Source: Candidatus Latescibacterota bacterium (GTDB lineage: Bacteria; Latescibacterota; UBA2968; UBA8231). Taken from it: a stretch of DNA of 64,000 bases. The notes under the pieces were generated by a model. That model saw only the letters and a list, made by a program, of their open reading frames with translations, was not told the DNA's origin and did not search any database. The stretch lies in NCBI GenBank assembly GCA_965206595.1, contig OZ242214.1, positions 6,462,675-6,526,674 on the forward strand, written 5' to 3'. Shown here in pieces: positions 9,510-12,711 of this stretch. The position numbers were made by a program, and so were the translations under genes. The number at the start of each line of letters is the position of its first letter. Within the stretch, counting starts at the first letter, position 1.

Positions 9510-12500
9510 CTATGGTTTTTCCAGCTTGTATACACGCATGCGGGAACGCAACCGCTCCTCCTTCATGCCCAATAAAGCAGCCGCGCCCTTCGGCCCATAA
9601 ATGACCCCATCGGTTGTCTGCAGGGCTTCCAGGATCTGTTGCTTTTCAGTCTTGAAGACCGTGCCGGCTTCCATTCCCTCAACCTGATCGACCGGCGGGG
9701 CGGACGTCCGCGACGAAACAGGTCCATCCCCGTCCCGGCCATCATCTAGGAATACATCCTCGAGTTGCAAGACAGGATTCCGGCACACGATCACCGCCCG
9801 CTGCATCATGTGCTCCAGCTCACGCACGTTCCCCGGCCAGGGATACTCCTGAAAGCGCCTCAATGCCTCGGGGCTCAGAGACGGCACCGGCCACCCCAAC
9901 TCCCCGGCAAACCGGTTCGCGAAGTAGGCCGCGAGGAACGGTATTTCCTCGCGGCGGTCCCGCAGGGGCGGGATTTTCACCGGGAACACGTTCAGGCGGT
10001 GGAACAGGTCTTCCCGGAACTCCCTTTTGGAGATGGCCTCATTCAAATCCCGGTTGGTCGCCGCAACCACCCGGACATCCACCTTGACAGGGGCCTGCCC
10101 GCCGACGCGGGTCAGGCGGCCCTCTTCCAAAACGTGGAGCAGAACCCTTTGGGCCTCCAAGGGCAGGTCCCCGATTTCATCGAGGAACAGGGTGCCCCCG
10201 TGCGCCTGTTCGAACCGGCCTTTCTTCGATTCTACCGCGTTGGTAAAGGCGCCCTTTTCATGGCCGAACAGTTCGCTTTCCACCAACCCCGGGGGCAGGC
10301 CTCCGCAGTTGACCGGGATAAAGGGATGCCCCCGGCGCGGACTCGCGGCGTGAATGTGCTTGGCGAGCACCCCCTTGCCCACCCCGGTCTCCCCCAGCAC
10401 CAGCACTATTGCATCGGTTTCGGCCACCTGTTCTGCCAGTTTCAGGACCCGGGACATGACCGGACTGTTTTTGAGCATGTCCTGCCGCGAGGTCCATGGC
10501 ATATGCTCCAGTTCCGGGCCGGGTGCGCCTTCCTCCTCCGCAACCACCTGCACCTCCAGGCTGACCGCGTCCGACATCAGGCCGTCCCGGTCCATGGCCC
10601 GCACCTCGAAGCGGAACCCGCCCGCAGGCAGAGCGGAGAACGAAACCCGGTTGGCGGGAGTGAACCTGCTCCAGGATTCGGCCGGGCCATGACCGACGAG
10701 CCGGTGGCTGTAGCGCATCTGCGCGGCCCCGGTTCTGAAACTGATGCCCTGAAACTCGATTCGAACCTCGCGGGTGCTGTCCGGGCAGGACACGGCCCGG
10801 GGGGCCTTGAAGAGACGCCCGGCCTCGACCCGGCCGATCACCAGGGCAGGCGGCACCTGGCCGGGCAGGTACGCGATGAGACCCGCACCCGTGCCGAACC
10901 AAAGCTGGCCGTCGCTGGCGCGCAGGATGTCCTCGACCACGTTCTCCAGGCTGGCGTTCCCCAGGCGAAGGGTCTGGAAAGCATGCGCGTCGTACTTCAT
11001 CACCCCCCCGCCGCTCGTGCCGACCCACAGGCACCTTTTCTCCGGGTCGGCCGCCAGACAAGAGGATGCCATTGACGGATAAATCCCCCTGGTCCACGGT
11101 AAACCGGCGAACTCGCCCGGCGGTGAAATCAAGGACGAACAGGCCGTTGTTGGCCGTGCCCACCCAGAGCCTGTCTTCGTGCTCGCACAGGGCAGTCACT
11201 TGAGATACGGCCTCCAACCCGGCCATTGCCGGCGGCTGAAAGCGGCCGTCCTCGTACCGGTACAGCGCCGGGGCGGTCCCCTCGGTGCCGGCCCAGACGG
11301 CACCGTCCCGGGCCGGCAGCACGGCGCGGCACTCGTGGGGCAGCCCTTCTGCCAACGAGTTGAACCGGTCGGCTTCTATCCGCCCCAGGCGCCCCCGGGA
11401 GGTGCCGGCCCATACACGCCCGCGGCCGTCCGCGCGCAGGGCCGTGACTTCTTCCCCGGAGCCGGTTTCGGCCACCTCGATCGCTCGGGATTCCTTTCCC
11501 GTCCACTTGAATACCTTGCCCTCCGGGCTTCCACTCCAAACCGGCCCCGGACCCTCCGCCACCAGCGCCGAGACCATGGGCCCGTTCTCCACCGTACGGA
11601 TGCGGTCGTCTTCCAGGCAGGCCAAGCCCCCCATGGTGCCGATCCACAGCCGCCCCGTCCCGTCTTCGTCCAGGCACCGAACCTCGTTGTCGGGCAGACC
11701 GTCGTCTTCCGTGTACAACTGCACGCTGACCGGATCGCAGAAGAGCAGCCCGCCGCCCCACAGTCCTATCCAGATGTTTCCCTCGCGGTCCTCGTAGGTC
11801 AGCCGCGTGTCCGAGAAATGGGTACCTTGCAAGCGGGCCGAAAACGGATGCCAGGTCTGTCCGTCGTACACCAGGACCCCCCGGCGAGCCATCCACAGCC
11901 AGCCCCTGTCGTCCTGGCGCACATGCCGCGTGCCGTGCTGGACGACTTCACCGCTCTCGACCTCATGGTCCACCTCGATCAGGTCGAGCTGTTGGCGCTG
12001 GGGGTCGTAACGGCCGATAACGGCTTCGCTGCCCACGTAGCGGAAGCCGATCCACAGACCGCCGGAGGCGTCCAGGGCGAACTTCCAGGGCCACTGCATG
12101 GCGGTTTCCCCGGTGCCCAGATGCCCGTTCATGGGCTGACCTTCCAGATCGATGATCCCCCGCTCCCGCGACGCCAGCCAGGTCGTACCCGCCCCGTCGG
12201 TGGCCATGTCGTATACCGCTCCGAGGGGTTGGTCAGCAAGGTCGGTCACAGGCTCCAGGCACCGCCCCTCGACAAAGCGGGCGATCCCGTTCCCGGTCAG
12301 CACCTGTACCGAGCCGTCCGCCTGGGGGTGCAGGCTCAATATGTCGTTGGAGGGCAGTCCGTCCCCGGTGGTGTATACCTGAAACCCCTGCCCGTCGAAA
12401 GCGGCCCGCCCGCCCCCGAGAGTCCCGAACAACAGGCGCCCGTCCTCGTCCTCGGCGATGGTCATCGCGTTGAGATGGGGAAGCCCGTTCGAGGGACCGA

Positions 12501-12711
12501 AGGTCTCGAACCGGGCCCCGTCGAAGCGGCTGACCCCGCCGTCCGCGGTGGCGACCCAGAGGAGCCCCCGGCGGTCCTGGTAGATGTCTTCCACGTGCAT
12601 CCCGGCCAGCCCGTCGAAGACGGTGTACTGGCGCCCGAGCATATGATCGAAAGCCACCCGCCCACCCGCGACCCGGGTGGATGGGGAAAGGGGTTCGGGT
12701 GCCTGGTTCAT
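9510..12711 (-). CDS. Sigma54-dependent transcriptional activator (bEBP): N-terminal two-component-regulator-propeller repeats and Y_Y_Y domain, sigma54-interaction AAA+ domain, C-terminal Fis-type HTH; apparent 1-bp frameshift near 11060-11080
   Basis: Repeated LW.GT..GG....DG motifs in frame A from 12711. Y_Y_Y-like segment VRIEFQGISFRTGAAQMRYSHRL. AAA+ motifs VLVLGETGVGKGVLA, ESELFGHEKGAFTNA (GAFTGA variant), LFLDEIGDLP. The HTH is in frame B (ORF 9510..11132); frames A and B overlap by 1 nt offset. Confidence 0.75.

Follow-up and report, generated by a model that had tools for sequence, protein, structure and literature searches.

A probably inactivated paralog within a multi-copy family of sigma-54 activators with predicted cytoplasmic double-propeller sensors in Candidatus Latescibacterota

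The stretch of DNA analysed here, referred to as the window, comprises 64,000 nucleotides (64 kb) of a Candidatus Latescibacterota genome (contig OZ242214.1, positions 6,462,675 to 6,526,674) and contains on its minus strand a gene for a sigma-54-dependent activator, or bacterial enhancer-binding protein (bEBP), the reading frame of which is interrupted once. The gene begins at an ATG at 12711 (MNQAPEP...), with GAAGG on the 5' side of this codon, and ends with a stop at 9510-9512. Two overlapping long open reading frames (ORFs), 10258..12930(-) and 9510..11132(-), cover it and, when joined, give a protein of ~1066 amino acids. Related proteins and loci are designated below by P and L numbers, respectively. 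The features of the regulator gene are as follows.

9510..12711, minus strand: frameshifted bEBP gene (ORFs, repaired translation, Pfam, and the 86-97% identical intact relatives P0001/P0123)
11060..11061, no strand: site of the frameshift, where one base is doubled to give AA on the plus strand and TT on the coding strand (alignments with L001, L002 and L083; same base in L005 and L006)
10854..12640, minus strand: predicted sensor of ~14 four-stranded blades, i.e. two seven-bladed propellers (AlphaFold model of P0001, Foldseek, phmmer)
10542..10853, minus strand: Y_Y_Y immunoglobulin-like beta-sandwich, then a non-hydrophobic linker helix (weak Pfam match to PF07495; model strands 621-722)
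10371..10394, minus strand: Walker A motif GETGVGKG (motif position; invariant in the family)
10236..10253, minus strand: L1 loop predicted to contact sigma-54, GAFTNA, a variant of GAFTGA (motif position; family survey)
9513..9647, minus strand: C-terminal helix-turn-helix (HTH) DNA-binding domain (model helices 1018-1056; PF02954 on relatives)

A Pfam search with the repaired protein identified many Reg_prop repeats (E=4e-37), a weak Y_Y_Y match (PF07495, residues 666-722) and a Sigma54_activat domain (PF00158, E=1.7e-67, residues 746-911) besides AAA_lid_14. PF02954 is sub-threshold on the window protein and is recorded on many relatives, and neither the window protein nor its relatives gave Pfam matches to HisKA, HATPase_c, Response_reg or HTH_AraC. 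No NCBIfam equivalog model matched the regulator at cut-off. The Walker B (LFLDEIG) and sensor II (PGNVRELEH) motifs are present in the regulator and, like the Walker A motif, are invariant across the family alignments. A tblastn search of the window detected no further copy of the regulator.

The AlphaFold model of the intact ortholog P0001 (mean pLDDT 74.8, with values of 80-90 across most of the sensor) comprises ~14 four-stranded blades (residues 25-615), a beta-sandwich (621-722), a helical linker (739-760), an AAA+ core (766-985) and a three-helix C-terminal domain (1018-1056). In a Foldseek search with this model the first ~740 residues align over ~780 columns with the complete BT4663, BT3049 and BT4673 sensors of hybrid two-component systems (HTCS), with E-values of ~1e-41 to 1e-32 over the three and of 3e-41 for BT4663 (4A2L/4A2M), and the core of the regulator matches those of NtrC1, FlrC, ZraR and FleQ at 40-49% identity. 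A phmmer search of PDB sequences retrieved 3v9f (E=1.5e-43) and also matched 4a2l.

No signal peptide or transmembrane (TM) segment was found in the regulator, the 19-residue Kyte-Doolittle maximum being 1.2 inside the protein. Likewise, across 120 full-length relatives the highest value is 1.65, and it never occurs at the N-terminus or in the stretch that joins Y_Y_Y to the AAA+ core, so that neither place has a TM-like segment. The N-terminal 12-residue hydrophobicity maximum of these relatives is at most 1.33, whereas the signal peptide of the adjacent secreted protein reaches 2.22. The sole hydrophobic stretch, LFLLTLITPFFIL, is the start of the upstream TTG extension of the long ORF; this extension is considered non-coding because alleles differ there by indels of 2 bp and 40 bp, as in a control region. 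As modelled, the protein is a soluble one-component regulator with an HTCS-type double-propeller sensor, and since this sensor is fused without a membrane segment to an AAA+ core and an HTH, a cytoplasmic location is the straightforward reading. The original prediction had proposed just such a fusion of propeller and Y_Y_Y modules to a sigma-54 AAA+ core and HTH, with the propeller sensing a ligand in the cytoplasm; Pfam, AlphaFold, Foldseek and hydropathy agree on the fusion, and a topology check of the repaired protein shows no TM segment or signal peptide.

The fusion is not special to this gene. A database search returned 3642 matches, the best 120 of which all have 1015-1081 residues and the same set of Pfam domains; the few named relatives are annotated as 'sigma 54-interacting transcriptional regulator' or 'AAA domain-containing protein'. 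When species-representative genomes were scanned for the sensor specifically, 94 relatives emerged, and 76 loci were kept. Their hosts are nearly all Candidatus Latescibacterota metagenome-assembled genomes, some older ones from sponges being labelled Gemmatimonadetes or Gemmatimonadota, and many are complete chromosomes of 4.5-7.3 Mb. At least eight loci are present in each of OZ220690.1 and OZ241867.1, and tandem loci occur at L035, L036, L039 and L046. At almost all loci one reading frame spans the whole protein, and at least six of the 76 are broken or degraded independently (L009, L022, L070, L071, L075 and the fragments L077 and L082), from which the loss of copies appears to be routine in this propeller-sensor family.

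The explanation that is considered probable as a whole is that the window gene is one paralog of a multi-copy, apparently sponge-associated family of cytoplasmic one-component sigma-54 activators in Candidatus Latescibacterota. The loss of the window copy would then be ordinary turnover, by birth and death, within a family that has expanded. In itself, the frameshift of a single paralog is unremarkable, a minor matter of one lost copy among redundant ones, and the novelty lies in the uncharacterized family.

The L1 loop of the window protein reads GAFTNA at 10253-10236, as originally reported; it keeps the phenylalanine and threonine and differs from GAFTGA at position 5 alone. Of 124 proteins compared, 59 have the loop GAFTGA, 41 GAFTSA, nine GAFTNA, three GAFTDA and three GSFTxA, and the 76 loci show a similar range (45 GAFTGA, 18 GAFTSA, four GAFTNA and one GAFTDA, plus two GSFT variants). 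GAFTNA is found in all close intact relatives (P0001-P0005, P0016 and P0123), and loci with GAFTNA, GAFTSA, GAFTGA and GSFTDA loops all adjoin sigma-54-type promoters. A survey of Desulfovibrio enhancer-binding proteins lists the position-5 variants GAFTDA, GAFTHA and GAFSEA as compatible with activation (PMC4641369). An interpretation of GAFTNA as a sign of degeneration is therefore not supported, in view of its occurrence in intact relatives, of the variability of position 5 in the family and of the retention of the -24/-12 promoters; judged from the alignments, the asparagine is probably a benign family polymorphism and not a defect.

The coding strand at the break reads ctcTTgtctg in the window and ctcTgtctg in L001, L002 and L083. 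The frame passes from ...DLSVNGIL (FTVDQGDLSVNGIL; last codon 11064-11062) to CLAADPEKRCLWVGT / CLAADPEKRCLWVGTSGGGVMKYD (first codon 11060-11058), and an unbroken ...DLSVNGILCLAADPEKRCLWVGT... is present in the intact proteins P0008 and P0123 (~96-97% identical) and P0001 (86%). The single shift originally placed near 11060-11080 thus corresponds to one extra base at 11060-11061, most likely a real one, which the intact orthologous alleles in L083, L002 and L001 lack. An alignment with L083, a 10x contig with an intact 1070-residue allele, reveals no other indel anywhere in the coding sequence; compared with the more distant L002, all remaining indels are multiples of 3. Because of the shift only the first ~550 residues are native, the correct frame being left about where blade 13 begins; a further ~267 residues are then read out of frame before the stop at 10258. 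The product of the N-terminal ORF had no match on database look-up, and gene callers placed a spurious opposite-strand ORF there. The C-terminal fragment (P0121; 520 residues from an ATG at 11072) is found on several public contigs, some of them longer than 1 Mb.

The extra base could be a sequencing or assembly artefact, in which case the real gene would be intact and the regulator functional. Latescibacterota chromosomes from sponge metagenomes have been obtained with PacBio HiFi reads and metaMDBG assembly (PMC12398682), and the window, judging from contig names and organism labels, appears to come from such a project. Contigs of this kind are not free of indel errors: in L001 (3x) this gene contains at least seven private insertions of 1-2 nt, mostly homopolymer extensions, and one G-run and one long poly-C tract vary between the window, L005 and L006. 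The break, however, lies in a run of only two bases and not in a long homopolymer, and four other contigs with the identical local context and the same assembly type lack the extra base. The same base is present in L005 (ERZ25068966, 13x, 885 kb) and L006 (ERZ25071132, 11x, 1.01 Mb). These two contigs originate from different samples and are distinguished from the window by four single-nucleotide polymorphisms within the gene, so that three separately assembled haplotypes carry the insertion. In all three it is co-inherited with a 40-bp deletion and an ~855-bp insertion-sequence (IS) element in the same module, neither of which is present in L083; these are not read errors and mark a genuinely distinct lineage. 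The window branch has neither another disabling mutation in the gene nor an excess of non-synonymous changes, which would suit an artefact. The dN/dS-style branch counts are uninformative here because there are too few changes. An artefact is accordingly regarded as unlikely, and the frameshift is taken as real with high confidence on the strength of these contig comparisons. Most likely, this copy was knocked out by a genuine, recent, lineage-specific 1-nt insertion.

Two other explanations would leave the gene with a function in spite of the insertion. The 520-residue ORF from the ATG at 11072, which is intact and publicly annotated as a gene, could produce a sensor-less activator with two blades, Y_Y_Y, the AAA+ domain and the HTH that is constitutively active and keeps the regulon on. 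Removal of the N-terminal regulatory domain makes several bEBPs constitutive, e.g. NtrC1, DctD, XylR and DmpR, and in the window protein the AAA+ motifs and HTH are all kept, with only one non-synonymous and two synonymous changes in the C-terminal half on the window branch. Nevertheless, the sole Shine-Dalgarno-like sequence, AGGGGGA, lies 11 nt before this ATG in a poor ribosome-binding context, and translational coupling is not expected because the upstream frame remains open until 10258. The fragment would also start inside the propeller and probably misfold, the sensor may control this family either negatively or positively, and the enhancers of the module are damaged or displaced as well. 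This possibility is therefore improbable. Programmed +1 ribosomal frameshifting or transcriptional slippage that restores the full-length protein is sterically conceivable given the long overlap of the frames (11132-10258), but the sequence ...AUC CUC UUG UCU... has no slippery motif, in-frame stop, rare-codon pause or A/T run, and P0123, P0008 and P0001 encode the same peptide unshifted, so that the feature is not conserved; with neither a slippery site nor conservation, recoding was rejected as extremely improbable. A knocked-out copy is thus the preferred interpretation, and a silent regulon in the window lineage, as in the original prediction, is plausible from the sequence.

The control elements on both sides of the regulator are as follows.

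12980..12993, plus strand: sigma-54 type -24/-12 promoter GGCACGCTTATTGC, divergent from the regulator (motif scan; conserved in relatives)
12830..12846, no strand: candidate enhancer, or upstream activating sequence, a single palindrome GTCGTATTAAATACGAC between the regulator and the promoter (palindrome scan)
8087..8100, plus strand: second sigma-54 type -24/-12 promoter GGCACGCCTTTTGC (motif scan)
7058..7092, no strand: candidate left enhancer, two palindromes CCGTATATAATACGG and CCGTATTATATACGG, 20 bp apart (palindrome scan)
7144..7998, minus strand: IS element of ~855 bp (inverted repeats, target duplication, transposase; empty site in L083)

The promoter motif GGCACG-N4-TTGC has exactly two matches in the window compared with 0.2 expected, a number reached by two of 100 shuffles, and two promoter patterns with the wrong spacer have none. 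Both matches lie upstream of and are co-oriented with flanking genes, that at 8087-8100 being 44 nt 5' of an ATG at 8144 and that at 12980-12993 being 60 nt 5' of the 13054-13281 ORF. The divergent promoter is kept in L001, L002 (beside the intact GAFTNA protein P0001), L005, L006, L007 and L083. A relaxed form of the motif has 19 matches in 706 kb of family loci, 14 of which are within ~600 nt of a regulator; 12 of the 19 share the strand of the regulator and are located 220-570 nt past its stop, and another two, found at GAFTNA loci, are divergent from the regulator and ~305 nt upstream of it. A stricter pattern, TGGCAC-N5-TTGCW with one mismatch, was discarded, as it gave a single chance-level match.

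The enhancer beside the divergent promoter consists of three sites 20 bp apart in L001 and L083; the window, L005 and L006 are 40 bp shorter here and retain one site. Its core, CGTATT-N-AATACG, has 45 matches with at most one mismatch in 820 kb, overwhelmingly in triplets with a spacing of 20-21 bp beside a regulator, and such triplets occur in L001, L007, L011, L013, L014, L018, L021, L023, L024, L075, L076 and L083. Three dimer sites two helical turns apart are the textbook layout for assembly of a bEBP hexamer, and the HTH may well be what binds these palindromes. At L010:3700-3800, which belongs to a GAFTNA paralog, the same half-sites CGTAT...ATACG are separated by a different spacer (CGTATGGACATACG, CGTATGCGGATACG), which suggests that operator specificity may diverge in the family through spacer length.

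The left enhancer is now ~1000 bp from the 8087 promoter and would be ~150 bp from it if the IS element, which sits between the two, were removed. The element is bounded by perfect terminal inverted repeats of 16 nt and flanked by a target duplication of 5 bp (AAGAA), and it encodes a DDE_Tnp_1 transposase at 7153-7779. The transposase is called as 208 residues in L005 and as 267 in L006 because of a 1-nt difference in a G-run at window position ~7856. The window is collinear with L083 over 3297-7146, and L005 and L006 diverge wholly from it to the left of ~6890, which indicates a rearrangement there among otherwise near-identical strains.

The genes flanking the regulator, which form its putative regulon, are as follows.

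13054..13281, plus strand: secreted Cys-rich ORF of 75 residues, the first after the divergent promoter (strong ribosome-binding site; 74-residue orthologs in L001 and L083)
13463-14407, 14512-15489 and 15586-16575, plus strand: three tandem secreted paralogs of ~325 residues, predicted CBM9-like (ORFs, paralogy)
16660..17217, plus strand: PD40 (TolB-like) beta-propeller repeat protein (Pfam PF07676, E=2.3e-16)
8144..9157, plus strand: secreted protein of 337 residues, identical to P0125 and predicted CBM9-like, convergent with the regulator (structure prediction, Foldseek)

The 75-residue ORF is rich in Cys, Asp and Trp (...CAYECALKNHDSYDWDCDDDGDHACSCRY) and has no family match. The paralogs of ~330 residues (8144-9157 and the three tandem genes) have no match in Pfam or NCBIfam; their family has 752 database members of ~320-335 residues, all nameless, and at least eight copies on one contig of 7.05 Mb. 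The structural model (pLDDT 70.5, pTM 0.75) matches the CBM9 structures 7NWN, 7NWO and 1I82 in Foldseek (E=1.7e-7 to 3e-6, TM-score on target 0.67-0.69), and these proteins are predicted to be CBM9-like in fold. At other paralogs, the genes that come first after the promoter encode prepilin-peptidase-like membrane proteins, PD40 proteins and FG-GAP/FlgD-Ig proteins with a sorting tail of the type IX secretion system (T9SS). The common theme of the adjacent genes is secreted or surface proteins and not glycan-degrading enzymes. A regulon resembling a polysaccharide-utilization locus was rejected since the genes after the promoters of the other paralogs encode envelope or surface proteins and not glycoside hydrolases.

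Several further observations concern these genes. A poly-C/G tract at ~8395-8410 within the 8144-9157 gene encodes HGGGGGGS; relative to the window it is 3 nt longer in L005 and 7 nt shorter in L006, where the gene is split into 200 and 131 residues, reflecting either sequencing trouble at a homopolymer or a hypervariable, phase-variable-like tract. The ortholog of window positions 8109-9354 at L083:9929-11167 looks fragmented (calls of 92 and 47 residues, 88% identity, 11 gap openings), and the parts of the module seem to decay differently between strains unless these are low-coverage errors. In the segments 14400-15489 and 15480-16575 a gene and the region preceding it are duplicated in tandem, the leaders of the two copies being near-identical (...GATGGAATAGCATGCGTTTCGG[G/A]CACTTCGTCCATCCGAAGTCG...).

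Elsewhere in the window, a gene at 21292-22839(+) encodes an AAA-ATPase_like (PF09820) and PDDEXK_9 nuclease protein; it is unrelated to the regulator and lies downstream of an Fe-ADH / LarA-like / Zn-ADH cluster (17557-21210). Very large ORFs at 56249-60094(-) and 59464-62937(-), of 1281 and 1157 residues, look like tandem paralogs; their overlap was also considered as a broken gene, but a motif spacing of ~3212 nt fits tandem paralogs instead. A further pair of overlapping ORFs is present at 47697-52706 and 52472-54748. A gene map based on the GC content of third codon positions was too noisy to expose other frameshifts.

In the mechanism proposed for the intact regulator, a cytoplasmic ligand would bind the propeller pair of a dimer, as a glycan does in BT4663, and the Y_Y_Y domain and linker helices would pass the signal to the AAA+ domains by analogy with NtrC1/DctD and with the 'scissor' dimer of BT4663. 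Dimers might bind the TCGTATT-N-AATACGA sites through the HTH, three DNA-bound dimers giving the active hexamer, and the GAFTNA loops would then engage and remodel the sigma-54 holoenzyme at the GGCACG-N4-TTGC promoters. In the window lineage the frameshift would be combined with a reduction of the enhancer from three sites to one and with the separation of the other enhancer from its promoter by the IS element; the likeliest outcome would be the absence of an activator and of induction of the flanking genes.

Some observations count against the explanation favoured here, that of a family member lost by a genuine insertion. The frameshift was judged from assembled contigs, in which a systematic consensus error is possible and which do have homopolymer indels. 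The branch counts, although few, show no non-synonymous excess (10 synonymous and nine non-synonymous changes on the window branch compared with 12 and 13 on the sister branch); together with the lack of a second lesion this means that the event is very recent or that the gene is still under some selection. A single-site enhancer also adjoins the intact gene in L002, and enhancer collapse alone is thus no evidence of decay. The gene for sigma-54 itself (rpoN) was not located in these genomes, in which no scan aimed at rpoN was made, and the ligand, DNA binding and ATPase activity of the regulator are ascribed to it by inference.

A broader proposal can be put forward tentatively, with slightly less than even confidence: that sponge-associated Latescibacterota have redeployed the Bacteroides HTCS glycan-sensor fold as the sensor of a cytoplasmic one-component sigma-54 activator, with at least eight paralogs per genome, their own enhancer triplets and promoters, and secreted or surface targets (CBM9-like, PD40, FG-GAP/T9SS and prepilin-peptidase-like). 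If so, the family would be the counterpart in this phylum of the HTCS repertoire. It would couple imported ligands, which may derive from the host or from glycans, to the remodelling of surface structures of the cell, and its GAFTGA loop would accept N, S or D at position 5. A cytoplasmic HTCS-type double propeller of 740 residues raises the questions of which ligand is sensed and of how a scissor-dimer signal reaches an AAA+ ring. With a candidate operator, promoters and targets defined and with intact (P0123 and P0001) and broken alleles at hand, the system is directly testable, and the natural GAFT[G/S/N/D]A series within the family offers a probe of the tolerance of the sigma-54 contact. 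Sigma-54 activators are known for swapping sensor modules; no paper on the pairing of Reg_prop with a sigma-54 activator, on propeller-type bEBP sensors or on sigma-54 regulation in Latescibacterota was found among the open-access papers searched.

Compared with known systems, the interrupted gene resembles frameshift pseudogenes of expanded paralog families in its single 1-nt insertion, in the independent breakage of other copies and in the IS element nearby, but differs from them in that the event is very recent, neither additional disabling mutations nor a measurable relaxation of selection being seen. The regulator shares with NtrC1, DctD, ZraR, FlrC and FleQ an AAA+ core (40-49% identical) with Walker A and B motifs, a GAFTxA L1 loop, sensor II and a lid, and with NtrC-type bEBPs in general a C-terminal HTH, tandem palindromic enhancers and -24/-12 promoters beside the gene. 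In contrast to these proteins, it carries a double propeller and Y_Y_Y of ~740 residues in place of a receiver, GAF, PAS, V4R or ACT domain, and position 5 of its loop is N (G, S, N or D in the family).

The sensor has the organization of the B. thetaiotaomicron HTCS sensors (BT4663, 4A2L/4A2M; BT3049, 3V9F; BT4673, 3OTT/3VA6), with two seven-bladed Reg_prop propellers and a Y_Y_Y domain, at a sequence identity of only 15-20%. Unlike those sensors, the window regulator has no signal peptide or flanking TM helices and is predicted to be cytoplasmic, and its output is a sigma-54 AAA+ domain with an HTH rather than a histidine kinase, receiver and AraC domain. The genes putatively controlled also differ, being secreted CBM9-like, PD40 and FG-GAP proteins and not polysaccharide-utilization loci; the CBM9-like fold of the putative target proteins is an indirect hint that the propeller interface may bind a glycan here as well.

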